Numbered from the stretch's first letter, positions 44,971-57,760 are shown. The stretch is DNA of 64,000 nucleotides from Chitinophagales bacterium (GCA_046329515.1 JAXLUM010000003.1:9606-73605); one strand, 5' to 3'. The notes: generated from the sequence alone by a model not told the origin. Numbers and translations: made by a program.

Positions 44971-45137
44971 AATAGCAATGCAAGATAAGAGGAAAACGTG
45001 GAGGGTGCCGGAACCTTTAACACCTCTGTTACTGAAAAGTGGGCCCCCTCCCACTTCTTAACCCAAGTTAAGGAGATTGGCAAAGCGGGGCCATACTTTT
45101 GCCTCATCAAATCACACAAACAACTAAAAACAACAAA

Positions 45138-46091
45138 ATGAAAGCAGCAGTTTATACCCAATACGGCGCACCACAGGTTTTACAACTTAAAGAGGTAGCA
45201 AAGCCGGTACCTACTGAAAACGAAATTCTTATTCGCATAAAAGCCACAGCCGTTAATTCAGGTGATGTGCGCCTGCGCAAAGCCGACCCCTTTGCCGTTC
45301 GGTTCTTCTTCGGCTTACTTAAGCCGAAAATAGGCACGCTGGGCAGTGTGTTTTCAGGCGAGGTGGAAAGCGTAGGAAACAAGGTTACCCTTTTTAAAGC
45401 CGGCGACCAGGTGTTTGGCCACACCGATATGCGTTTTGGCGCCTATGCAGAATACATATGTGTGGCAGAGAACAGTTCTTTGGCCGTAAAACCAACGAAT
45501 ATTTCACATAAGGAAGCCGCCTCTATTCCCTTTGGTGGAGTTACAGCCTTGCATTTTCTTAATAAGGCTATGGTTAAGGCAAATCAAAAAGTAATTATAG
45601 TGGGTGCTTCAGGTGCTGTGGGAAGTGCCGCAGTTCAACTGGCAAAGTCGTACGGCGCAATAGTAACCGGTGTTTGTAGCACCTCGAATGTTGCCTTGGT
45701 AAAAAGCATAGGGGCCGATAAAGTTATTGACTACACAAAAGAAGACTTTACCCAAAACGGCGAGCAATACGATTTGATTTTTGATACGGTAAATACTATA
45801 TCGGTTACAAAGGCGGCAAAATGCTTAACCCAAAACGGCACTATGATTTTGAGCGCCGCCGGAATGGCTGAAATGCTGCAGGGCTTTTGGCTGAATATTT
45901 CAGGTGGTAGAAAAGTATTAACCGGGGTTATTAGCCATAAAGCAGAAGATATTCAATTGTTGAAAGGGCTTATTGAGGCGAAAAAGTATAAGCCTGTTGT
46001 TGACAGAAGTTTCCCTTTAGCGCAGATAGCAGAGGCACATGCTTATGTAGAGAAAGGACATAAAAAAGGAAACGTAGCGCTGGAGGTATAA
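45138..46091 (+). CDS. NAD(P)-dependent medium-chain dehydrogenase/quinone oxidoreductase
   Basis: MKAAVYTQYG...; GASGAVGSAAVQLAK nucleotide-binding motif. Confidence 0.85.
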   Translation: MKAAVYTQYGAPQVLQLKEVAKPVPTENEILIRIKATAVNSGDVRLRKADPFAVRFFFGLLKPKIGTLGSVFSGEVESVGNKVTLFKAGDQVFGHTDMRFGAYAEYICVAENSSLAVKPTNISHKEAASIPFGGVTALHFLNKAMVKANQKVIIVGASGAVGSAAVQLAKSYGAIVTGVCSTSNVALVKSIGADKVIDYTKEDFTQNGEQYDLIFDTVNTISVTKAAKCLTQNGTMILSAAGMAEMLQGFWLNISGGRKVLTGVISHKAEDIQLLKGLIEAKKYKPVVDRSFPLAQIAEAHAYVEKGHKKGNVALEV

Positions 46092-46092
46092 C

Positions 46093-46668
46093 CTATTTCT
46101 GAAGCAACCTCTTTCTAATGCGGCTTAATGATTCCGGTTTAACGCCAACGTAACTGGCAATTTGATACTGAGGGATTTTTTGAAATAAATCGGGGCGCGA
46201 TTTCAGCAACTTCAAATAGCGTTGTTCTGCAGTATCGGTAGAGTAGGAGGACATAATCTCCTGTTGCTCGGCAAATACCTTCTCCATTACTTTTCTTGAA
46301 ACGGTTTCCAATTTCGGGAACCGTTTATAAAGGCCCTCTTCTTTTTCGCGGTTACCAACCACCAACGAGCAATCTATACAACAATCCATATAATGCCTTG
46401 AAGGAGCATTCTGCATAAAACTGTTCATGGATATTACCCATTGTTCTTCGGTAAAAAAGTTACTCGTTCTTTCCTCACCATCTACCAGGTAATACTGCCT
46501 TACGCAGCCCTCTAAAACAAAATATACTTCGGTTGAAACCTGTCCCTCTTTAAGCAGCACCGTACCCTTTTTATATTGCTTAATGGTCATGGTTTCTACA
46601 ATGCCTTCAATCTCTTCTTTTGAGAGGGGCATAATCCGTTGAAAATATTGCAGAAGTTTTTGTTCCAT
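46093..46668 (-). CDS. Crp/Fnr family transcriptional regulator
   Basis: cNMP-binding beta-roll (KKGTVLLKEGQVSTEVYFVLEGCVRQY). C-terminal HTH (IASYVGVKPESLSRIRKRL). Confidence 0.85.
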   Translation of the reverse strand: MEQKLLQYFQRIMPLSKEEIEGIVETMTIKQYKKGTVLLKEGQVSTEVYFVLEGCVRQYYLVDGEERTSNFFTEEQWVISMNSFMQNAPSRHYMDCCIDCSLVVGNREKEEGLYKRFPKLETVSRKVMEKVFAEQQEIMSSYSTDTAEQRYLKLLKSRPDLFQKIPQYQIASYVGVKPESLSRIRKRLLQK

Positions 46669-46824
46669 TAAACTGGGAGGTCAATCGCTAGTTTCAAATA
46701 TAGGAACTCTTTTAATGCGGTGGTTGTACTAAACATTGCATCAATGTAATTTCTGCCATACATAGTAATAGTTGCTATGTGATATAGATTAACCTCTATT
46801 TTTGTCCGCGCCAAACCACTTTTT

Positions 46825-48306
46825 ATGCAAAAAACGGAATCCCGGATCCGAAAGCAAGACCAATTGCTGCAGTTAATCCATGCGCTTAATAGTAATGAAC
46901 GAAGGTATTTCAAGCTCTATACCGGATTGCAAAGTGGCGGTAAAAAGTATGCAGCCTTGTTTGATGTGCTTGCAGAAATGCAACAGTATGATGCCCCCGC
47001 TGTGTGCACTAAACTAAATGTTAGCCGTAAGCAACTAGGTGATGATAAAGCCTACCTGGAAGTTATACTTTTAAAAGCCTTACAAGCCTACCACGCTAAC
47101 GATAATTACCGTGCGCAAATTTTAAATGGATTGTTGGAGGCAGATATTATAGCTGCTAAGGGACTGTTTACGTATGCGCTTTCGCACTTGCAGAAATTGA
47201 AAAGAATATTTCCTGAGCACGGCAAGGATGATTTGGTGTATGTTATGCTGCTTTTGAAAGAGAGCAATTTCAAACGCAGGTCTATACCCGGTTTTTTTAA
47301 AGGGGATGCAGAAGGTAAGGCAGATGAGATAAGTGAACGGCTTGAAAATGTTTTGGTAAACACCAAGCTGACCATACTGGGAATTGAAATGGCTGATTTA
47401 GCTGATGATAATACATACATTGCAGATAAGGATGTGCTTCGAAAAGCTGCCGGCATTATCGGCAAATATCACGCGCTGGAAAAGGAAAGAAAATTCAGTG
47501 TGGGGGCGCAAATTACAGGTTGCATTCTTTTATGCAATTATTACCTGCACCTTGGGGTTGACTCAAAACTTGCTTTACAACATGCGCAAAAGGGATTACA
47601 CTTATTCAGCGCTGAATCAAAAAAGTTTAATGAGTTAAATTCCTACAACCATTACCTGCTTATAATGGCGATGTTACAGAGCTACTTTGCGCTTAATAAT
47701 GTAAAGGGCTGTGTGGAAAGTATAAACCGGTTAAAAACATTTGCGGCAGGAAAAATACCGGTTGCACTGGCTAAGCGCGCTTCGTTTTCCGCTATTAAGT
47801 TTGAAATATTAACGGCCACTGCGGCGGGCAACTATACAGCCGCTTTGAACGTTATACGCCAAACCGGCGAGCAGGCTATGCAATTAACTCCCTTTGCTGA
47901 AGATGCAGCGGTATTTACGCTTTTTGAGGCTATAAACCTTTTTCATTTGCAGCGGTACGATGAAGCCTTACAACAGCTTATGATACTGCTTGCATCGGAT
48001 GCGCCCGACCAACGCCCTGAAACCCGGCTGGGCGCACGTGTTTTAAATTTAATACTGCAGCATGAGTTAGGTAATTCTATCTCCATGCCTAATTATATAC
48101 GGGCCGATGCGCGTTTTTTTAAAACGAATAAATGGGTAAGCGAAGAAACGGAGCTGTTTATGGAATTGATAAGATATTTAACCCGCAGCAACAACAGGAG
48201 TAAGCTGGCTGAATTCAAAAGGAAATTTGAAGCTATTTATGACAACAGGCGCCTTGAGCTTATTGGCCATTTTGTGATATTGCCATGGTTGGACCGCTTG
48301 TATTAG
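46825..48306 (+). CDS. Hypothetical all-helical protein
   Basis: 493-aa ORF, helical/TPR-like by composition, with no catalytic motif recognised. Confidence 0.5.
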   Translation: MQKTESRIRKQDQLLQLIHALNSNERRYFKLYTGLQSGGKKYAALFDVLAEMQQYDAPAVCTKLNVSRKQLGDDKAYLEVILLKALQAYHANDNYRAQILNGLLEADIIAAKGLFTYALSHLQKLKRIFPEHGKDDLVYVMLLLKESNFKRRSIPGFFKGDAEGKADEISERLENVLVNTKLTILGIEMADLADDNTYIADKDVLRKAAGIIGKYHALEKERKFSVGAQITGCILLCNYYLHLGVDSKLALQHAQKGLHLFSAESKKFNELNSYNHYLLIMAMLQSYFALNNVKGCVESINRLKTFAAGKIPVALAKRASFSAIKFEILTATAAGNYTAALNVIRQTGEQAMQLTPFAEDAAVFTLFEAINLFHLQRYDEALQQLMILLASDAPDQRPETRLGARVLNLILQHELGNSISMPNYIRADARFFKTNKWVSEETELFMELIRYLTRSNNRSKLAEFKRKFEAIYDNRRLELIGHFVILPWLDRLY

Positions 48307-48392
48307 CGGCTCGCAAAATACCATAAAGCTATTTGTGGCAACAGATGTGTATATTTAAGTGGCTGCAGTTATTTAACTGCCCGTTTAACAGA

Positions 48393-49979
48393 ATGACAAT
48401 GCTATTAACTACCACATTTACTTTTTGCACGAATAGGATAAAACTGTTCAATCTGCTTTTACTTTTCTTTTTACTTATAGGCCTAATTCAAAGCTCCCAT
48501 GCTCAAAGCAAAGAAGACGCCTTAAAATCTTTTTTTTCAGCAATTGATAAGAATGGAGACATTAATGGCAGTGTTTTGGTAATGGAGAAAGGGAAGGTGC
48601 TGTTTCAGAAATCGTACGGTTACGCTGATGTACAGAATAGAATACCGAATACAGAAAACACCCTTTTTCAACTTGCTTCTGTTTCAAAAATATTTACGGC
48701 AATTGCCATTTTACAGTTGAACGAAAAAAAGAAACTCCGCTTAACGGATAAAGTGGCAATGTACTTTCCGAAATTCCCTTATCCCGATGTAAGCATTCAA
48801 CAGTTACTGTCTAATACATCGGGTATACCAAACATTGATGAAATATTGATAGAGTTCAGACAGGCTAACTCTGACACCATATTTACAATGCATGATGTTA
48901 TTCCCGCATTGCTTGAAAGCAAACTACCGCTAAACTTTAATGCCGGGGCCGGTTGGGATTATTCTAATACTAATTACGTTTTAGCTGCGCTTTTGGTGGA
49001 GAAGATTAGCGGCGAAAAGTATGGCAATTATCTTTTCAAAAACATTTTTAAACCGGCAGGAATGGTCGCTACTTTTCAAAGGGCATCGGGTGAAAATGCC
49101 TACACCCATGCCAACGTGGCTTATAATTATGCATGGCCCTATATTTCATCGCCGGCTGCTGTACGGGTTGATTCATTTGCTATTGACTATTACAGGATTC
49201 AATACCAAACATTGCCGGCAGAAGGAGATGCGAATATCTATTCATCTGTAAATGATTTGGTACGTTTTGATAAAGCCTTGAAAGGCGGTGTGCTTTTAAA
49301 CAAAAAAAGCATGAACCTTCTTTTTTCGCCGGCTACCAGCATTAAAGGGCGCATATATAGCTTTAACGGCGTAGGTTCTGAAGTGGGCGAAATAGGAAAC
49401 TTTTATTGGGGTTGCGGCAATCGTATTTTAATTGATAGCACTTACGGTAAAATTGTTTGGTATAGCGGTGGCATGCCCGGCTGCGCAACAAACATTATAA
49501 GCAATTTAAGCACGGACCAAACGCTTATTTGGCTTGACAACCGCGAAAGCAAATCGGCTATGAACAATCTTTTCGGGGCTTTCTATCTAATAAATGGTGT
49601 TCCAACTGCTGCTTTAAAAGCAAAAACACATGTAGCCGTTGCCTATGCGCAAACACTTGAACATGAGGGGGCTGACATAGCGTTCGCCCGGCTTACAGAT
49701 ATGGTTGCTGACACCGCTAACTATATATTGGATGAAGATGAATTTAATACCCTGGGGTATGAATATGATGGAAGAAATTTGAGGGGCCTTGCATTTGAAG
49801 TCTTTCGTTCTGCAATTTCATTATTCCCTGAAAGCGATAACTTATACAATAGTTATGGGGAGCTGCTCGTAAAGTCAGGAAAGAAAAAAGAGGCTGTGAT
49901 TATGTATAAAAAGTCGCTGCTTTTAAACCCTGAAAATGAAGACTCGCAAAAAAGTTTAAAACAGTTAGAAGATAACTAA
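48393..49979 (+). CDS. Serine hydrolase (class C beta-lactamase/PBP fold) with C-terminal TPR-like region
   Basis: SxxK motif (LASVSKIF), YSN motif (DYSNTNY), signal peptide. C-terminal TPR-like KKSLLLNPENEDS. Confidence 0.8.
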   Translation: MTMLLTTTFTFCTNRIKLFNLLLLFFLLIGLIQSSHAQSKEDALKSFFSAIDKNGDINGSVLVMEKGKVLFQKSYGYADVQNRIPNTENTLFQLASVSKIFTAIAILQLNEKKKLRLTDKVAMYFPKFPYPDVSIQQLLSNTSGIPNIDEILIEFRQANSDTIFTMHDVIPALLESKLPLNFNAGAGWDYSNTNYVLAALLVEKISGEKYGNYLFKNIFKPAGMVATFQRASGENAYTHANVAYNYAWPYISSPAAVRVDSFAIDYYRIQYQTLPAEGDANIYSSVNDLVRFDKALKGGVLLNKKSMNLLFSPATSIKGRIYSFNGVGSEVGEIGNFYWGCGNRILIDSTYGKIVWYSGGMPGCATNIISNLSTDQTLIWLDNRESKSAMNNLFGAFYLINGVPTAALKAKTHVAVAYAQTLEHEGADIAFARLTDMVADTANYILDEDEFNTLGYEYDGRNLRGLAFEVFRSAISLFPESDNLYNSYGELLVKSGKKKEAVIMYKKSLLLNPENEDSQKSLKQLEDN

Positions 49980-50079
49980 GTAGGCATACTGCTTACCCGC
50001 ACACAGGGCAATTACTGCCGCTAAAGAGAAAAGCCAAACATTTTACGGTTACAACTGTTTATAGCATACAACATATTGT

Positions 50080-50754
50080 ATGCTACGAGTGAAAATAGAT
50101 AATGAAGAAGCGGATGCCATTGGCGATAACCATGTAATGACCAGTACCGATACCCCCTTGAGGGCTGATGCATTTGTAATGGATGATGACCTTAAGATTG
50201 AACTGATTGAAGAGAAGTTTGCCGAGATAATGCACATACTTGGTTTGGACCTGAATGATGATAGCCTGAAAGGCACGCCGCACAGGGTAGCTAAAATGTA
50301 TGTAAAAGAAATTTTTAGCGGACTTAACCCGGCCAATAAACCTAAAATAGCGCTTTTTGAAAATAAGTACCGGTACCGCGAGATGCTGGTGGAGAAGGAC
50401 ATTTCGTTTTACAGTAACTGCGAGCACCACTTTGTGCCTATTATAGGCAAAGCGCATGTAGCTTATTATAGTAACGGATATGTTATAGGCCTTTCTAAAA
50501 TTAACCGCCTGGTGCAGCACTATGCCAAACGCCCGCAGGTGCAGGAGCGCCTTACTATGCAAATAGCCGATGCCGTTAAAGAGGCTACCCGCTCAGAAGA
50601 TGTAGCGGTTATAATAGATGCCCATCATCTTTGCGTTTCTTCACGAGGTGTAAGTGATGTTAACTCATCTACAGTTACTTCATCGTTTAGCGGCAGGTTT
50701 TTGAATGAACAGAACCGAAACGAATTTTTGGCTTACTGCGGCGTAGCCAAATAA
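50080..50754 (+). CDS. folE: GTP cyclohydrolase I
   Basis: GTPHRVAKMY, NCEHHFVPI, and HLC near the C-terminus. Length is comparable to E. coli FolE. Confidence 0.93.
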   Translation: MLRVKIDNEEADAIGDNHVMTSTDTPLRADAFVMDDDLKIELIEEKFAEIMHILGLDLNDDSLKGTPHRVAKMYVKEIFSGLNPANKPKIALFENKYRYREMLVEKDISFYSNCEHHFVPIIGKAHVAYYSNGYVIGLSKINRLVQHYAKRPQVQERLTMQIADAVKEATRSEDVAVIIDAHHLCVSSRGVSDVNSSTVTSSFSGRFLNEQNRNEFLAYCGVAK

Positions 50755-50758
50755 CGCT

Positions 50759-51679
50759 ATGGCCATGGCAGCTGCGGCAATAGAATTGAAGGGACTTGTG
50801 AAGCAGTATGGTAAACATACTGCCGTAAATAACCTTAACTTAACGGTTGAAGCGGGAAGCGTATATGGCCTGTTGGGCCCTAACGGCGCCGGCAAAAGTA
50901 CTACCATACGCATGGTGCTATCGCTTATTAAACCTACAGCCGGTTCCATAAATATTTTAGGTCAATCGTTACCGGAGGACCGCCGGCAGATAATGCGCAA
51001 CATTGGATGTATTATAGAAAAACCTGATTTTTACCAATACCTTTCTGCACGTAAAAACTTAGAGTTGCTTACCCGCATGAGCATGGTGCGGCCCGATGCA
51101 AAAAGAATACAGGAAATGTTTGCGTTGGTAGGGCTTAGCGGTAGGGAGGACGACCCCGTTAAAACATACAGCCATGGTATGAAACAACGGCTGGGCCTGG
51201 CACAAGCGCTTATACACAACCCGCAATTAATTATACTGGATGAACCTACAACCGGGCTGGACCCGCAGGGCATTATTGACCTCAGACACCTTATACTACG
51301 GTTGAAGAATGAAATGGGTAAAACCGTTGTGCTTTCATCGCACATACTTAGTGAAATTGAGCTGATAGCTGATAGCATGGCTATAATAGCCAAAGGCAAA
51401 GCTGTGGTACAGGGGCGGGTAAAAGAACTGCTAACGGATGATGATTTAATGGTATCAATAGAACCTGCGGATATGCAGGCGCTAAAAAGGGTATTGCAAA
51501 GTTCGCAGTGGGTTAAGCAGGTGCAAAGTGAGGATAATGCACAGTTGGTTATGCGCGTAAGTAAACCTGAATTACCCGCGTTACACAGTTACCTTGAAAC
51601 GCAGGGGGTGGCCCTGTTCTCCTTATCGTATAAACGGCAGCTTGAGGATTATTTTCTGAAACTTACCAATGCGGCATAA
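50759..51679 (+). CDS. ABC transporter ATP-binding protein (ABC-2 exporter type)
   Basis: Walker A GPNGAGKST, signature YSHGMKQR, Walker B LIILDEPTTGLD. Confidence 0.9.
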   Translation: MAMAAAAIELKGLVKQYGKHTAVNNLNLTVEAGSVYGLLGPNGAGKSTTIRMVLSLIKPTAGSINILGQSLPEDRRQIMRNIGCIIEKPDFYQYLSARKNLELLTRMSMVRPDAKRIQEMFALVGLSGREDDPVKTYSHGMKQRLGLAQALIHNPQLIILDEPTTGLDPQGIIDLRHLILRLKNEMGKTVVLSSHILSEIELIADSMAIIAKGKAVVQGRVKELLTDDDLMVSIEPADMQALKRVLQSSQWVKQVQSEDNAQLVMRVSKPELPALHSYLETQGVALFSLSYKRQLEDYFLKLTNAA

Positions 51680-52518
51680 TGTTACAATTGATATACGTTG
51701 AGCTGATAAAAATATTTACCAAGCCGCGCAGCTACATAGGCTTTTTGGCCATTACAGCGGTTATACTGCTTATACAGTTTGCTATTTATATTGATGGGCG
51801 CAACTACCTTGATTTTATGCTGCAAACCATGCGGCAATCGTTTGATATAAGCGGCAACATTCTTAACGGCAACCTGGTTTGTTTCATTATACTGCAAACA
51901 CTAATTATGCAAATGCCTTTAATGGTAGCCCTGGTTACCGGCGATTTAGTTTCCGGCGAAGCCGCCACCGGAACCATCCGCCTGTTGGCTACCCGCCCGT
52001 TTTCGAGGGGGCAAATTTTGTTTGCCAAGTATTGCGCCGGCGCTATTTACACCGTGGCGTTGGTGGTGTGGCTGGGTGTTTTGGCCCTTGGGGTCAGCAG
52101 GCTGGTATTCGGGCATGGCGATATTATAGTTTTGAAAACAGACTCCCTTACTATTATTCGTGATGCAGACCTGTTATGGCGCTTCTTTGGAGCGTTTTTC
52201 ATTGCGGTGCTCAGCCTTATGCTAATCGCTACTTTTTCACTAATGCTATCGTGCTTTACTGATAATTCCATAGGCCCTATAATAACAAGCATGTCGGTTA
52301 TAATTGTGTTTACCATTATAGGTACAATTGAGGTGCCCGTATTCGACCACATAAAGCCATTTCTGTTTACTACGCACATGGTTATATGGCGAAACATGTT
52401 TGACGATCCGCTGCCAGTAGCTCAAATAGCCACATCAATTGGTGTTATAATAGCGCACATAGCAGCTTTTTTGGGTATTAGTTTTTATCATTTCACCCGC
52501 AAAGATTTACTGAGCTGA
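51679..52518 (+). CDS. ABC-2 family transporter permease
   Basis: 279 aa with about 6 TM segments. Start is coupled to the ATPase stop (ATAATG). Confidence 0.75.
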   Translation: MLQLIYVELIKIFTKPRSYIGFLAITAVILLIQFAIYIDGRNYLDFMLQTMRQSFDISGNILNGNLVCFIILQTLIMQMPLMVALVTGDLVSGEAATGTIRLLATRPFSRGQILFAKYCAGAIYTVALVVWLGVLALGVSRLVFGHGDIIVLKTDSLTIIRDADLLWRFFGAFFIAVLSLMLIATFSLMLSCFTDNSIGPIITSMSVIIVFTIIGTIEVPVFDHIKPFLFTTHMVIWRNMFDDPLPVAQIATSIGVIIAHIAAFLGISFYHFTRKDLLS

Positions 52519-52519
52519 T

Positions 52520-53209
52520 ATGAAACCTGTATTTCTCTTACTGCTTGTATTGTTTACGGAATGTGTTATGGCCCAGCAACCGGCGCAGACCGTTAATGCC
52601 GCTTACAAAAATTTTAAAAGGCTGAAGGATTACAGTGCCAATGTAAAAATGGACTTTGATATTCCTTCGGTGCGTATAAAAAGTATTGAAGGCAAAGTGT
52701 ATTTTAAGCAGCCTAACCGTTTTAGAGTAAAAACAAACGGCATTATTTTTTTGCCGAACCAAAATCCTTACTACGCGCTTGGTTTTTTAGCAGATAGCAG
52801 CGCCTACACGGCTGTTGCTACCGGCACTGAAAAAATAGGAACTGCTGATTGTAAGATTATAACGGTAATTCCGCTTAAAGAAGGCGAGGTGGTACTATGC
52901 AAGTTATGGATAGATGAGGCCCGTTCGTTAATACTGCGCACACAACTTACCACACGCACTGATGGTACTATACAAATGGACAACACCTTTAGCCCAACGG
53001 CAGTGTACCCTACGCCCGATAAAATTCTGTTTACGGTTGATATGACCAAGTTTAAAGTGCCCAAAGCTATTGCGGTTGACATTAACTCTAAAACCACCTC
53101 GGGCAGTTATAACCAAAAAAGCACCGGCCACATTACGTTAAGCTTCACTGATTACAAAATCAATCAGAACCTCTCTAATTCGGTATTTGAGGAAGATAAA
53201 CAGCAATAG
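52520..53209 (+). CDS. LolA-like / outer-membrane lipoprotein-sorting fold protein
   Basis: Signal peptide. Pattern Y.A.V.M.F......IKS.EGKVYFKQPN.FRV, as in LolA/LolB-like proteins. Translationally coupled to the permease. Confidence 0.5.
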   Translation: MKPVFLLLLVLFTECVMAQQPAQTVNAAYKNFKRLKDYSANVKMDFDIPSVRIKSIEGKVYFKQPNRFRVKTNGIIFLPNQNPYYALGFLADSSAYTAVATGTEKIGTADCKIITVIPLKEGEVVLCKLWIDEARSLILRTQLTTRTDGTIQMDNTFSPTAVYPTPDKILFTVDMTKFKVPKAIAVDINSKTTSGSYNQKSTGHITLSFTDYKINQNLSNSVFEEDKQQ

Positions 53210-53263: not shown

Positions 53264-53286
53264 ACCTTGCACCAAAAGTTTGGGGA
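53264..53286. repeat. Left copy of an imperfect direct repeat bounding the A+T-rich islet
   Basis: accttgcaccaaaagtttgggga versus accttgcatcaaaagtttaggaa at 57438-57460 (20/23 matches). The related string atcaaaagtttaggaaa lies inside the tRNA-Arg gene (57552-57568). Confidence 0.55.
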
Positions 53287-53390
53287 CTTTTAGTAGCCTT
53301 AAGCACTGACTTATCGAACCTTTGGAGTTATATTCAACGGGTTGGTTTATTTTAAGACGTATTTAAAATATGTTTCAATTTATCGTTTCT

Positions 53391-53398
53391 TATATTTG
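53391..53398 (+). promoter_or_regulatory. Candidate -7 box (TAtaTTTG) upstream of the 1287-aa ORF
   Basis: tatatttg, 45 nt upstream of the GTG at 53444. Confidence 0.35.
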
Positions 53399-53443
53399 AG
53401 TGTTAAAGTTTACTCTTAATACAAGCGCATAAGTTAATAAATA

Positions 53444-56400
53444 GTGATTTACCTCTTTTTTGATAGCGATGTTTGGTTAAACTCTCTCAAAGAAAGCGGG
53501 GAGGAAGATAACTATATTGATTCATTGGAGTACTGGATTGAAAATGGGCATGTCAAAATACTACTTCCTGAAAACGTAATTGACGAATGGAAAAGAAACC
53601 GAGACAAGAAAAAGGAAACGTTTCTAGAAGATTGGAAATCCTTTTTCAACAGAGCCAAAAAGGTTTTCTCAGGGGATGTGGTAAACAATTTAATGACCCC
53701 TGAGAATCTGAATGAGAGAGTTGAGAAACAGCTCAAAAGAGTTGAAGCAATTTTTGAAAACTACGCTATAAAAATTCCAATCACCAACGATTATAAATTA
53801 AAGGCAATAGAATTAGCTGAACGGAAGAAGGCGCCTTTTGGACAAAAGAACAGCATTGGAGATGCTTATATTTTTGTAAGCATAATCGACTATATTTCAT
53901 CTAACAATCTTTCCGATTGTGTTTTTGTAACCAATAACCACACAGATTTCAGCCACAAAGGTGATTACAGTAAAATTCACCCTGATTTAGAGCCTGAATT
54001 CACTAAACTGCAAATCAGTTATTACATTAATCTCAGAAGATTTTTTCGTGAGTACTCATCTCGTCTTCCAGATGTCTCAGAATACAGAAAGCTCAAAGCT
54101 CGCAAAGAAGAAGATAAAAAACTTGCTAGTGCGGTTTTGGACCCTCAAACACTTGAGAACCTAACAGGACTAAGAGATTCTTACATTGAAAACATTAATC
54201 ACTTAGACCTAATTTTCAAAACCGTCAGTCCAACAAAGGAGCAAGTTCTCTTTGCGCTCGGGTTAGTTGATTCTGATGAAAGTTACAAGCAATACTTTTT
54301 TAAAAAAATTGAAAGTAGTGTTTGGTTTAAAATACTTAAAAGTAGCGGAGAGTTTAATCCCTCAAAGAATCCTGCCCCGATTCAGTTAAATGATGGGATT
54401 CAAGTTCCCCTGTGGGATCCGCTTGTTTACCTTGAAAAGCTTTCATTGCAAATCAAGAATGGACAGTCTCTTGAACTCATTGATGAAATAGTTGCAATCA
54501 TCAATGAAACTTCTCAAAAACCAGTTGACAATTACAAAACCTGGTATTTGTTTATCAAAATATTGGCTAATCTCCCGAAAGAAAAAATTCCAATAGAGAC
54601 ATTGAAATTCATTCCTACATGGTTTAGTGGAAGTTTTGATACAATGATGCAGAGTTCAGAGATATGCGATAATCTACTTCCAAAGTTTCTCTCTGAAAGT
54701 CCAACAACGGATGACATTCAAAAGGCAGAAGTGATTTTAAAATATCTTTTCAGTATTGAGAAAGTTGAAGTTACTGGACAGGGCAGATTAGTGACTGATG
54801 CAGAGAGCTATCACTCGAAAGTTTACATGTATTATTTAACAGATGCTTTAATTGATAAGAAGCTAACGAAAAAAATTGTTGCTTATTGTTCAGATAATAT
54901 CATTATTGAATTAGCAGAAAAAATTAAGACGCTGGGATTTGATTTTCCTGGAGGAATTAACTTTTCACTCAAAATAATAGACAAGAGCTACAGTTGTAAG
55001 GCTGAAATTGTAAATGAGGATTTGATTGTTAAGATTTTAGTGGAAGATGGAAAAATCATTGGAGAAGGAATAATAGAAAAATTTGAAAACCTTACCGACG
55101 AGCAAGTGAAAGCTTACTTAATTGCGCTTCTGGAAAAGTTAGAAGTTGTATATGAAGAGAACGAAGAAAACGAGTGGGAAATACAAATACTTACAAATGC
55201 TTTAGCAAATGGCAATTACCACTTTTCTGACGACGCAATAAGTGAATTAAATTACCGCTCCCATCACGGAGATAAAGTTATTGAAGTGTTTTCTTTAATC
55301 TTTAGGAATCTTCTAAATGATAAAGTACAACAGAATAAGGAAGAGGGGCTTTTGCTTTTAAAAGTTTTTGCCTTTAAGAATAAATACAGGTCGACATTTT
55401 TCCGTAGGGTTATTCTGTTTGTAATTAGAGAGAATTGGGAGGCATGTAGGGGTTTGTTTTGGGAAATTGTTAAAGAGAATGACTCCTTGTCGCTTTTTTC
55501 TGATTATAATTTTTATAAAGACCTGTACGAAATCCTCAATAAGAACCAAATGTTATTGCGCCAAGAAGAAATCTCGACACTTCAAAAGATAATCGATTTA
55601 GGCCCTCGGGATAAAGAAGTTGGAGACCCAAAGTATAAGGACTATTGGCAGTTGCGTTGGTATTCTGCTTTGAGAAATATTGCTCCGTTCAGAAAAAGTT
55701 ATGAAAAGCTTTCACAATCAGAAAACCTGACCAACGAACACTATGAAAATTTGGGTGTGATAAGAACCAGAGTTGGTTCGGTTTCTCCTTTTAGTGTAGA
55801 AGAAATACTTCAAAAAGGTAATCAGGATATTGTCGAATTCATTCATGCGTTCAAACCAAAAGATCGTTGGGAAGAACCAACTATTGACGGACTATCAAGT
55901 TCATTAAGTGCAGCGATCCAAAAGGAACCGCAAAAATTTTCTGATGAAATTGAACTTTACAAGGATGTACCCTACATCTATGCTTACCATATTTCCAATG
56001 GTTTTAGGGAGGCATGGAAAAATAAAAGGTCATTCAATTGGGAAAAGGTTTTGAATTTCTACAAAGAGTATATCTCAAACGAAAAATTTACATCAGATGA
56101 GCTTCGTTTAGAAAATGATGGTTGGGGGGCAACATCAGATTGGGTTTTAGGTTCAGTTGCTAACCTTTTAACTGAAGGGTTGCAATCAGACAATAATGGA
56201 TTTGATTTATCGCTTCTGCCTATTGCAAAATATATTCTTAAAATTATTGTTCCACGGTTAAGGCCAGTGGAAGACTTTAAGCAAACGAATATGGACTATC
56301 CGACCTATTCGCTGAATTCAACAGCCGGTAAAACGCTTAGAGCTTTACTTGATTATTCACTCAGGAGAGCAAGAAACTTAAAAGCAGAAGATAGTTTACC

Positions 56401-57307
56401 CTATTGGGAAAAAGAGATTAAGGCTTTATGGGAAGAAACTTTTAATAAAGGAATAATCGACGGTTACGTTATCAACGGTCGGTATTTCCAGCAATTTTAT
56501 TATTTGGATAAAGAGTGGATAACTAATAAAGTAAAAGAGTATTACAAACTTGAAGATAAGGAGTGGCGTGCTTTTATGAGTGGATTTGCCTTCGGCAATC
56601 CGCCATTTAACAAGGACATTTATCAGTTGTTTTACGCGCACTATGAAAGAGCAATTAAGAACAACATTCAGATAAAAGGTCATTATGGTCACGGTATTAT
56701 TAGACACATTGTTGCTTTTTATTTTTGGGGTTTTGAAGATTTGCAAACGGACGGCTTGCTTACAATGCTTTTCAATGAAGGCGATCATGCTAGTATTCTA
56801 GAAGTTGTAAATTTTGTTTGGAGGCAGGAGAGCTATTTGAATAGTTTGAATGGAGAGGAAGTAAAGAACTTTGAAGAAATAATTTTCAATTTGTGGAACT
56901 ACCTTGTTCAGAAGTATGACAATACAACTAGCGAAGAAGGACATGAGGTTTTAGCTGCACTTTCAAATCTTCTTGTTTTCGTACCTAAGCTAAATGACAC
57001 TTATACGGCTTTAGTTTTGAAGTCAAGCGAGGTTACCGATAAACGGTCTTATTCTCATTATCTTATTGAAAACCTTGTCAAACTTAAAGACCGTGGTGGT
57101 CTAAATGAGTCTGCTAAACATGTTGGAATTATCTTGAACTCAATGCGATTTGCTCCTTACTTTTCCTCCAATGACAAGAAACATATTATTGACTTAGTTG
57201 TATTTCTTTATGAAAATGGACAGAAGCCAATTGCCGATGAATTTTGTAACAAGATGGCAAAGCAGGGCGATGAATTTCTTATTGAGATACATAACAAATA
57301 TAGGTAA
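53444..57307 (+). CDS. 1287-aa protein: N-terminal PIN-like nuclease domain plus about 1080-aa helical region of unknown function
   Basis: GTG start. The N-terminal roughly 200 aa carry PIN signatures (IYLFFDSDVW; ...IGDAYIFVSII...; CVFVTNNHTDFS). In the remainder I recognise no P-loop or other catalytic motif. The gene is A+T-rich relative to its flanks. Confidence 0.7.
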   Translation: MIYLFFDSDVWLNSLKESGEEDNYIDSLEYWIENGHVKILLPENVIDEWKRNRDKKKETFLEDWKSFFNRAKKVFSGDVVNNLMTPENLNERVEKQLKRVEAIFENYAIKIPITNDYKLKAIELAERKKAPFGQKNSIGDAYIFVSIIDYISSNNLSDCVFVTNNHTDFSHKGDYSKIHPDLEPEFTKLQISYYINLRRFFREYSSRLPDVSEYRKLKARKEEDKKLASAVLDPQTLENLTGLRDSYIENINHLDLIFKTVSPTKEQVLFALGLVDSDESYKQYFFKKIESSVWFKILKSSGEFNPSKNPAPIQLNDGIQVPLWDPLVYLEKLSLQIKNGQSLELIDEIVAIINETSQKPVDNYKTWYLFIKILANLPKEKIPIETLKFIPTWFSGSFDTMMQSSEICDNLLPKFLSESPTTDDIQKAEVILKYLFSIEKVEVTGQGRLVTDAESYHSKVYMYYLTDALIDKKLTKKIVAYCSDNIIIELAEKIKTLGFDFPGGINFSLKIIDKSYSCKAEIVNEDLIVKILVEDGKIIGEGIIEKFENLTDEQVKAYLIALLEKLEVVYEENEENEWEIQILTNALANGNYHFSDDAISELNYRSHHGDKVIEVFSLIFRNLLNDKVQQNKEEGLLLLKVFAFKNKYRSTFFRRVILFVIRENWEACRGLFWEIVKENDSLSLFSDYNFYKDLYEILNKNQMLLRQEEISTLQKIIDLGPRDKEVGDPKYKDYWQLRWYSALRNIAPFRKSYEKLSQSENLTNEHYENLGVIRTRVGSVSPFSVEEILQKGNQDIVEFIHAFKPKDRWEEPTIDGLSSSLSAAIQKEPQKFSDEIELYKDVPYIYAYHISNGFREAWKNKRSFNWEKVLNFYKEYISNEKFTSDELRLENDGWGATSDWVLGSVANLLTEGLQSDNNGFDLSLLPIAKYILKIIVPRLRPVEDFKQTNMDYPTYSLNSTAGKTLRALLDYSLRRARNLKAEDSLPYWEKEIKALWEETFNKGIIDGYVINGRYFQQFYYLDKEWITNKVKEYYKLEDKEWRAFMSGFAFGNPPFNKDIYQLFYAHYERAIKNNIQIKGHYGHGIIRHIVAFYFWGFEDLQTDGLLTMLFNEGDHASILEVVNFVWRQESYLNSLNGEEVKNFEEIIFNLWNYLVQKYDNTTSEEGHEVLAALSNLLVFVPKLNDTYTALVLKSSEVTDKRSYSHYLIENLVKLKDRGGLNESAKHVGIILNSMRFAPYFSSNDKKHIIDLVVFLYENGQKPIADEFCNKMAKQGDEFLIEIHNKYR

Positions 57308-57390
57308 TGAAAATGCGAACCGCTAAAAATGGCTAAACAAAAAAGGGTTTCAGTATTGAATCAAGTACTTCAGCTATACTTTGGCAACAC

Positions 57391-57476
57391 GTAGCCCCGG
57401 CAGGAATCCCTGCCTGACTGCGTCACGCAGAAAGGAAACCTTGCATCAAAAGTTTAGGAAATACTAGTGCGAGACC
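57391..57476 (-). pseudogene. Degenerate tRNA-Arg(CCU)-derived remnant
   Basis: Minus strand reads GGTCTCG-cactagta-TTTCCTAAACTTT-TGAT-[29-nt hairpin insert]-AGGCAGGGATTCCTGCC-GGGGCT. It parallels the acceptor, anticodon and T arms of the adjacent tRNA but lacks a D arm. Confidence 0.5.
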
Positions 57477-57486
57477 GAGTATTGAG

Positions 57487-57523
57487 AAAAACCAGAGTGA
57501 GAGGCCGCTCTCCCTCTGGTTTT
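57487..57523 (-). terminator. Hairpin terminator immediately 3' of tRNA-Arg
   Basis: aaaaaCCAGAGtGAGAGgccgCTCTCcCTCTGGtttt. Confidence 0.7.
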
Positions 57524-57598
57524 TGGTAGCCCCGAGCAGAATCGAACTGCTATCAAAAGTTTAGGAAACTTCTATTCTATCCGTTGAACTACGGGACC
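57524..57598 (-). tRNA. tRNA-Arg (anticodon CCU), CCA encoded
   Basis: Hand-folded cloverleaf: GGTCCCG TA GTTC AACGGATA GAAT A GAAGT TTCCTAA ACTTT TGAT AGCAG TTCGATT CTGCT CGGGGCT A CCA. 75 nt; the acceptor stem has two G-U pairs. Confidence 0.85.
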
Positions 57599-57760
57599 AT
57601 AAGCTGAATAACAACAACCCCGGTATCCCGCTGCAATAGCGGGAAAGGGACCATAAAGAACGGAGGGCGAAAATAATTTCTTTCGGCAAAATTGCAGAGT
57701 GTGGTTTAATGCACGGCTCCAGCATCTTTTTTGTATTATAGCAGTATCTAAAATCTATCT

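Follow-up and report, generated by a model that had tools for sequence, protein, structure and literature searches.

The window analysed here is a 64,000-nucleotide stretch of a Chitinophagales bacterium (GCA_046329515.1 JAXLUM010000003.1:9606-73605; G000:C3:9606-73605 in our labelling, where G000 is the window's own 4.38-Mb genome and G010 its closest relative). T9SS (type IX secretion system) sorting domains and SusD proteins place the genome in Bacteroidota. At 53.3-57.4 kb, beside a tRNA-Arg gene, the window carries a small A+T-rich islet whose only gene encodes a putative defence protein, PIN-Dsr1. Read from left to right, the islet and its edges are composed of a tRNA-derived stump (53264-53292), a short conserved element that we call B, a leader, the PIN-Dsr1 gene, 83 nt of spacer, a pseudo-tRNA (A_R), a further 10 nt, a terminator and the functional tRNA.

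The initial annotation had described an islet of about 4.2 kb, bounded by direct repeats and devoid of an integrase, and the composition of the segment agrees with this description. The four 1-kb bins at 53-57 kb have a GC content of 0.346-0.361, against 0.387-0.496 in the remaining bins of the window; taken as a whole, the islet has a GC content of 0.349, compared to 0.437 +/- 0.022 in 4-kb windows of the genome, of which 0.25% are equally low. The discontinuity extends to codon usage, with a third-position GC (GC3) of 0.333 in the single open reading frame (ORF, 53444-57307) that occupies the islet and of 0.39-0.53 in the neighbouring genes. The 53.3-57.4 kb segment is foreign DNA with one intact gene. 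A domain search detected no recombinase domain in the islet ORF or in the genes at 43.8-60 kb, all five PF00589 matches of the genome lie outside the 43-64 kb part of the window, and no tyrosine integrase was found in the window or beside any B copy examined. The islet indeed has no integrase, and a related recombinase gene is found elsewhere in G000.

The direct repeats hold up well. Their 23-nt core, already reported, extends to 25 identities over 31 positions (53264-53294 and 57438-57468). With up to three mismatches allowed, the 23-mer occurs at these two sites only in the 4.38-Mb genome, with none for a reversed control, and none of 500 shuffles of both 400-nt flanks reached 25/31 (shuffle maximum, 23), which answers the initial caveat that such a match might arise by chance. 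The left repeat, A_L (53264..53294, + strand), corresponds to a stump of the tRNA-Arg(CCT) 3' half of which the anticodon-arm part alone is recognisable; further to the left, no significant similarity to the pseudo-tRNA on the right is seen (139 of 1000 shuffles score as high). The right repeat was suspected to lie inside a tRNA-like remnant, and does so: it is part of a pseudo-tRNA-Arg(CCT), A_R (57391..57476, - strand; nhmmer with the profile of such units, which we call A, E 2.7e-21). On the tRNA strand A_R comprises the acceptor 5' strand, a CCU anticodon arm, a T arm with a split loop and the 3' acceptor strand, without D arm or CCA, and is called neither by ARAGORN nor by Rfam. The related 17-mer noted initially in the anticodon arm of tRNA-Arg is there as well, 57445-57461 being identical to 57552-57568. 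These alignments identify both repeats as fragments of the tRNA-Arg(CCT) anticodon arm.

The functional tRNA-Arg(CCT) (57524..57598, - strand; ARAGORN; 58.9 bits with the Rfam tRNA model) is the sole Rfam match in 53-58 kb, and its 3' end faces the islet. Abutting this end is a terminator hairpin (57487..57524, - strand) with 17-nt arms of 94% complementarity, a 4-nt loop and flanking A and T runs. Two types of tRNA-Arg(CCT) exist in the genus, one with the T-stem GGCAGG/CCTGC and no encoded CCA (type 1), the other with GAGCAG/CTGCT and a G in the D-loop (type 2); in the loci compared (L016, L025, L015, L009-L013), the latter encodes CCA in some genomes, such as the window and G020. The functional tRNA of the window is of type 2, with encoded CCA. 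A_R, on the other hand, has a type 1 T-stem, which matches the functional tRNA in G010 and in G024 but not the window's own, so that functional tRNA and pseudo-tRNA are of different types. A second A copy in G000 directly abuts tRNA-Arg(CCG) (G000:C2:262283-262355), and in other genomes of the genus A copies are found singly or in tandem 80-nt arrays, with T-stems that resemble the local tRNA-Arg.

The surroundings of this second copy are worth recording on their own. G000:C2:253977-262355 is a 9-kb island of low GC (0.29-0.35) that ends with a tyrosine integrase (260795-262048, - strand) just 5' of a tRNA-Met, and this tRNA is followed by the tRNA-Arg(CCG) (262210-262282) and the A copy.

The T-loop of A_R is split by a palindrome of ~29 nt (CCCTGCCTGACTGCGTCACGCAG.., 57408..57436, unstranded) whose right arm is decayed. 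The same palindrome, of ~29-33 nt (CCCTGCCTGACTGCG..CGCAGGCAGGG), splits the T-loop in pseudo 3' halves of tRNA-Arg, tRNA-Phe, tRNA-Pro and one untyped tRNA (L063 in G024:C6; L064 in G024:C2; L067 in G012:C12, with two tandem copies 203 nt apart; L072 in G055:C68), and these pseudo-halves often sit just behind a terminator. Since stacked Arg, Phe and Pro pseudo-halves share the palindrome exactly in the T-loop, a T-loop-specific insertion process is suggested, and the palindrome behaves like a small insertion of the repetitive extragenic palindrome (REP) kind that prefers T-loops. Variants are also found outside a tRNA context (L069, L071, L074-L076). We considered the arms as ends of a larger transposon, but searching for a 15-mer at 2 mismatches gave too much noise, and its follow-up gave short palindromes only, in T-loops and elsewhere.

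Element B (53293-53346, ~57 nt) abuts the left stump and has a single strong copy in G000 (nhmmer E 3.4e-16). It is almost confined to the genus, being present, with one to three copies per genome, in 15 of the 33-40 genus genomes, in none of 26 from the family's other genera and in one of ~340 from the rest of the order. The junction between stump and B recurs in the same register at five loci. An alignment of 21 B copies separates a variable left part from a conserved right one. The left 24 nt (GTAGCCTTAAGCACTGACTTATCG; 53293..53316, + strand) resemble a miniature tRNA 3' end, and are the positional equivalent of a 54-nt tRNA-Leu copy in G000:C1 and of a 24-nt piece, GTACCCCTACGGGGCAAATTATCG, in G024:C7; on this comparison we take them for a tRNA-end-like piece. 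The right half (AACCTTTGGAGTtATATTCAacggGTTgg; 53317..53346, + strand), with two conserved half-sites around a variable centre, is the element-side attachment (att) arm. An arm of this type (AAC..TTGGAGTGATATTCA..TTAATTC) adjoining a tRNA-half-like piece is thus what the distal end of the islet presents.

At eight loci or more, a tRNA-Arg(CCT) or tRNA-Arg(CCG) has B at 0.7-12 kb from its 3' end, always in the same relative orientation. Between the two, each locus has its own unrelated genes, which include T9SS cargo, a collagen-like protein, regulators, metabolic genes and putative defence sets; other species of the genus thus have unrelated cargo within the frame formed by tRNA-Arg and B. Two such slots, both at tRNA-Arg(CCG), have contents of the defence-island type: a five-gene cluster SWIM-DUF5691-AAA_5(MoxR)-DUF5682-VWA in L039 (G054:C19, 4728-12083), and a pair of DUF6602 and DUF4145 genes in L034 (G004:C46, 13221-14633).

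Other roles for B were considered, and two of them rejected. As a structured RNA it reaches only ~-1 kcal/mol in RNAalifold on either strand, with no Rfam match beyond tRNA. As a coding remnant it offers one open frame (..LSNLWSDIQ..), with stops just upstream or inside in several copies and no start codon. A general role as a fixed promoter has no support, as loci differ in how the next gene is oriented and how far away it lies. Nor do the loci resemble an integron-like cassette array, with folded sites of the attC type and an IntI integrase with attI: B has no conserved secondary structure on either strand, and a tyrosine recombinase was found near none of its copies examined.

Between B and the gene lies a leader (53344..53443, + strand) in common with G010; its local alignment to the stretch of G010:C1 that separates B from the ORF has a score of 26, which only 2 in 1000 shuffles attain. 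It includes a candidate -7 box of the Bacteroidota type, TATATTTG (53391-53398, + strand), placed from the known consensus. Start codons follow B at 100 nt in G000 and at 104 nt in G010, in different genes, and the leader of both looks promoter-like from its sequence.

The comparison with relatives, in which core proteins are 55-96% identical within the genus, reveals a frame with exchangeable contents. In G010 the order is a homologue of the window gene w_44272, a 153-aa ORF, stump, B, a leader of ~70 nt homologous to window 53344-53412, a gene for a 319-aa T9SS protein, tRNA-Arg(CCT) and an outer-membrane protein (OMP) gene (OMP 96% identical at the amino acid level). In G024:C5 the site is empty, the w_44272 homologue lying 47 nt from tRNA-Arg and being followed by the OMP gene. 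An empty site does exist, and G010:C1 has a different gene in the same place; these relatives lack the ORF here, PIN-Dsr1 being specific to G000 at this site. Because the G010 frame holds a different gene and the G024 site is empty, the repeats would predate the cargo or be independent of it; and since the stump-B frame is common to G010, with another gene inside, the repeat pair was probably not made by the arrival of this cargo. From the sequences compared, the stump-B frame appears to be older than, or independent of, the arrival of PIN-Dsr1.

The cargo gene itself (53444..57307, + strand) has a GTG start and encodes 1287 aa, in which Pfam and PADLOC recognise a PIN nuclease and a sensor region of the DSR1 type (defence-associated sirtuin 1; bioRxiv 10.1101/2021.12.14.472415). 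PIN_12 (aa 4-169, 3.7e-19) is the sole Pfam domain, and residues 643-1286 align to positions 593-1224 of the 1227-position PADLOC Dsr1 profile (PDLC04166, 2.8e-111). Of the acidic PIN residues, D7, E48 and D140 do not vary among 18 homologues of 37-79% identity, while D168 is retained in at least 90%. The protein is like DSR1 in the match of its C-terminal ~640 aa, in its single-gene layout and in its size (~1,200-1,300 aa), and differs from it at the N-terminus, where Pfam finds no SIR2 (NADase) domain and the PIN_12 nuclease domain takes its place. With SIR2 replaced by a PIN nuclease, the predicted effector chemistry would be cleavage of nucleic acid and not depletion of NAD+. From its domains, the cargo is most likely a single-protein abortive-infection sensor-nuclease; no solved structure related to it by sequence was found. 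The DSR1-type region also occurs in ~1000-aa proteins without PIN and in ~1215-aa proteins whose N-terminus is unrecognised by Pfam (P0048-P0123), which suggests effector swapping or loss.

Homologues of 1281-1293 aa and 52-80% identity are found in other Bacteroidota lineages (Bacteroidales UBA5536, Saprospiraceae, Algoriphagus, Parachryseolinea). The GC content of the gene is 0.31-0.345 in all hosts, with host flanks of 0.32-0.48. This GC, which stays at ~0.33 across hosts, together with the 52-80% identical copies in other orders, shows that the gene was acquired horizontally. A general link of such homologues to tRNAs or to B was rejected, as a tRNA lies nearby in 1 of 12 loci elsewhere and A or B matches in none of the 12.

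A candidate for the missing recombinase comes from the same genus. On contig C11 of G024, a tRNA-Arg(CCG) is followed by a large serine recombinase (LSR) gene with Resolvase and Recombinase domains, a 44%-identical PIN-Dsr1 homologue and a dynamin-like/DUF4365 gene, with an end formed by two A copies and a B-like arm 47.7 kb away. This LSR, used as tblastn query, finds a 42.5%-identical gene in G000 (C1:1130135-1131982; Resolvase 3e-25, Recombinase 1.5e-7), the only full-length LSR match in that genome. It is part of an intact 16.2-kb element at tRNA-Leu(CAA) (G000:C1:1115521-1131822; locus L062, 1521-17822). The C1 element lies between the copies of a 56/57-nt direct repeat derived from the 3' part of tRNA-Leu(CAA), and its LSR gene and terminator abut the tRNA. 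Among its cargo are genes for a histidine kinase and a collagen-repeat protein, as well as an IstB-like fragment.

The distal repeat of the C1 element is directly followed by AACTTATGGATTGATATTCAATTGATTAATTCC, that is, the right half of B (31/35 to one B copy by hand count), and this arm is the second-best B match in G000. The same arm is found in G024:C7, 100% identical over 66 nt, behind another left sequence (24 nt, GTACCCC..TTATCG), with the break exactly before AAC. Since the arm follows differing left sequences and the break falls precisely there, the right half of B is element DNA; these alignments show it to match the element-side arm beside the tRNA-derived repeat of the intact LSR element in G000. 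By analogy with that element, the boundaries of the islet would be placed at 53317, before AAC, and before the GTAGCC of the tRNA-like unit; the repeat pair reported initially is real, and its copies would not themselves be the limits. The arm contains an imperfect palindrome of 25 nt (GGATTGATATTCAATTGATTAATTC) whose orientation in G020 (L095, G020:C267) is opposite to that in G024:C7 and G000:C1, and which may be the actual core site of the recombinase.

A survey of 40 genus genomes, G000 included, gave 15 LSR loci (L077-L091) in 11 of them. In 12 of the 15, the LSR gene and a tRNA or tmRNA gene meet with their 3' ends (Leu in four, Arg-CCG and Asn in three each, Glu and tmRNA in one each), and from this placement the genus LSRs appear as a tRNA/tmRNA-targeting clade of serine integrases. 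To our knowledge, long tRNA-derived repeats are unusual for serine recombinases, the known serine integrases using short cores and rarely targeting tRNA genes. The C1 LSR protein has a 100% identical copy in a different species (G024:C10:109021-110616; L078, L092), with element DNA of 97% identity over 6.5 kb, and an LSR identical in two species implies recent horizontal transfer of the element. The G024 copy adjoins tRNA-Leu(TAA) and the G000 copy tRNA-Leu(CAA), which points to a relaxed or shifting target.

Junctions between these components fall into four classes, all broken before GTAG(C/T)C: A to B, A to tRNA, LSR end with terminator to tRNA, and LSR end with terminator to B. In G044, for instance, a remnant of the LSR C-terminus (tblastn 1.7e-11) and a terminator precede tRNA-Arg(CCT) and two B copies. 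The terminator of the window takes the position of those that follow LSR genes abutting tRNAs in C1, G024 and G044. Compared in this way, the proximal edge of the islet is shown to have the layout of a tRNA-Arg-derived unit and then a terminator abutting the tRNA, an arrangement also seen at tRNAs that adjoin LSR genes. A lost LSR gene may have left traces of its 3' end in two short, weak, collinear motif matches on the + strand: CGAACCGCTAAA (57316-57327), identical to the C1 LSR at 11 of 12 positions, and AAGGGTTTCAG (57343-57353), identical to G024 and G047 at 11 of 11 and located 46 nt from GTAGCC, compared to 50 nt there.

Taken together, these results make it probable that the islet is the remnant of a genus-specific integrative element of tRNA 3' ends that used an LSR and has lost it. 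This reading fits best because B matches the arm of the C1 element and the LSR clade abuts tRNAs and tmRNA. Two relics at least are stacked at this locus, stump and B on the left and pseudo-tRNA and terminator on the right. Mechanistically, an element consisting of B arm, cargo, LSR and terminator would have entered at tRNA-Arg(CCT), and its LSR gene would later have been deleted, while a second event would have left the pseudo-tRNA and terminator beside the type 2 tRNA. At least two successive events would then have taken place at one tRNA, the first giving the stump joined to B and cargo, the second A_R and the terminator joined to the tRNA, and the two direct repeats would be the anticodon-arm parts of the stacked tRNA-Arg 3'-half copies from both events. 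Part of the att-site duplication at a tRNA gene proposed in the initial annotation survives here: the repeats are att-type relics that appear to derive from tRNA-Arg, the left one abutting the element-side arm B, while the recombinase family would be the LSRs and not the classical tyrosine integrases. We think that the islet is immobile on its own, and at most moved in trans or swapped by homologous recombination via B and the tRNA.

Several observations weigh against this remnant reading. The window has no significant LSR remnant: the nhmmer profile of LSR 3' ends is blank at 57.3 kb, tblastn for an LSR pseudogene gave only the spurious read-through of the tRNA, and no LSR gene was found abutting the tRNA-Arg of the window, where the terminator alone abuts. 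The putative vestiges are two short collinear motifs only, with scores that shuffles reach 5-71 times in 1000. A recombinase gene stands directly beside B in none of the ~20 B copies examined, and several copies have no tRNA in the fetched sequence, some of those contigs being short. In the distal repeat, the 25/31 match spans the anticodon arm alone, and the T-arm and acceptor part of this left stump is undetected and unrecognisable. The stump-B frame and ~70 nt of leader are shared with G010 with differing cargo, because of which PIN-Dsr1 may have been swapped into an already dead frame instead of coming with the element. Finally, in the same LSR element at tRNA-Leu(CAA) in G000 and at tRNA-Leu(TAA) in G024, homology ends exactly at the tRNA 3' end, which favours a crossover at the tRNA boundary and speaks against an element that supplies the tRNA 3' half. 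The 56/57-nt repeat of G000 with its native-looking flank favours, for its part, the classical model, with a crossover near the anticodon and displacement of the chromosomal 3' half.

A wider and more tentative proposal is that the genus has an undescribed class of integrative element, of which the islet would be one slot. The LSR of this class would target the tRNA/tmRNA 3' boundary, each event would leave a tRNA 3'-half copy marked or inactivated by the T-loop palindrome, and B with its leader would serve as a fixed platform for the exchange of single genes, defence genes among them.

Alternatively, tRNA-Arg and B could be dead relics that act as anchors, between which RecA swaps the resident gene for incoming DNA with matching anchors, the repeats then being unrelated to the arrival of PIN-Dsr1. 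We find such a cassette exchange unlikely, even though some results speak for it: G000 and G010 share stump, B and the ~70-nt leader with different single genes at the same distance from B, the identity of B (~90%) and of the tRNA (90-99%) exceeds that of the surrounding genes (55-75%, protein), and the functional tRNA of the window is not of the type of its closest relative's. However, the anchors measure only ~55-75 nt, no donor was found in which B and a tRNA enclose this cargo, and in G024 a PIN-Dsr1 homologue rides on an LSR element.

It is less credible still that the islet remains mobile in trans, as a cis-mobilisable element, with the C1 LSR or an incoming one recombining the B junction with the junction of terminator and tRNA to release a ~4.2-kb circle. 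Both junction types are present in the window, and G000 does have a recently transferred related LSR, 100% identical to one in another species. Yet the B of the window and the C1 arm are identical at ~22 of 31 nt by hand count, the C1 LSR resides at tRNA-Leu and not at tRNA-Arg and is ~43% identical to the LSR associated with tRNA-Arg(CCG) in G024, and the directionality factor that serine-integrase excision generally needs was not identified. As for a coincidental repeat among tRNA-like sequences beside an old resident gene of odd composition, the shortness and imperfection of the repeat and the missing T-arm and acceptor part of the left stump lend it some colour, but it is effectively refuted and most improbable given the shuffles (0/500 at 25/31), the 23-mer unique to the two sites, the absence of the gene from this site in relatives, its constant GC across hosts and the stump-B junction in one register at five loci.

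Known systems offer partial parallels to a remnant of this kind. Classical tRNA islands directly repeat the 3' part of their tRNA and carry a tyrosine integrase, and integrase-less degenerate remnants of them are known. The islet is like them in its location at the 3' side of an intact tRNA with a tRNA-derived repeat at the far end, and in its foreign composition, absence from relatives and defence cargo. It is unlike them in having no integrase and an LSR as associated recombinase, and in a repeat that is the anticodon arm alone, with a pseudo-tRNA instead of a functional tRNA as proximal partner. ICESt1 and ICESt3 of Streptococcus thermophilus reportedly illustrate cis-mobilisable elements and tandem accretion at one att site; similarly, the islet is att-flanked, lacks recombination genes and lies among stacked relics, with a related recombinase elsewhere in the genome. 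It departs from that case in its visibly decayed att sites and recombinase class.

LSR integrases of phages and integrative and conjugative elements are exemplified by the phiC31, Bxb1 and TnpX types. The genus LSRs share with these the Resolvase and Recombinase domains and the location of the gene at the element end beside an att junction, while they differ in that their clade abuts tRNA/tmRNA 3' ends and one member has the 56/57-nt tRNA-derived repeat. In E. coli, 18 of 41 defence-island hotspots are at tRNA loci, and 68% of the islands in hotspot #37 have no detectable mobile element (PMC10121019). The slots described here are comparable to those hotspots in being fixed beside a tRNA, with different defence-type cargo in each genome and often no mobility genes. 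Unlike them, one edge of the slot is the conserved 57-nt att arm B and not a core gene, and genes without a defensive role (for T9SS proteins, regulators and metabolism) are also found among the cargo.

The islet itself is ordinary, small foreign defence segments beside tRNA genes being common and often free of mobility genes. What sets it apart are the tRNA/tmRNA-targeting serine recombinases, the marker arm B, pseudo-tRNA halves that bear a palindrome and a PIN domain in exchange for SIR2. As far as we know, there is hardly any description of serine integrases that target tRNA genes and have long repeats derived from them. The missing recombinase can now be given a name, the LSR clade that abuts tRNA/tmRNA 3' ends, and the 57-nt arm B provides a searchable marker of its relics. 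In turn, PIN in place of SIR2 on a DSR1-type sensor makes the cargo a variant of a known defence protein with an exchanged effector, which can be put to the test.

Two further observations concern the flanks of the islet. On the right, a 10-nt duplication, GGGACCATAA, comprising the tRNA 5' end and flank, is found at 57593-57602 and 57647-57656, and its copies enclose 44 nt with a small hairpin (CCCGCTGCAATAGCGGG); in G010 the 10-nt sequence occurs once and the insert is absent. On the left, an 8.2-kb block of native GC (44971-53209) encodes an alcohol dehydrogenase (ADH), a Crp-like protein, a 493-aa ORF, a beta-lactamase family protein with TPR, folE, an ABC transporter and a LolA-like protein. 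This block is non-syntenic with G010 and G024; in these two and in G012, the genes that flank it stand next to the tRNA-Arg slot or nearly so. Its ABC/LolA operon occupies another genomic position in G004, G005 and G007.

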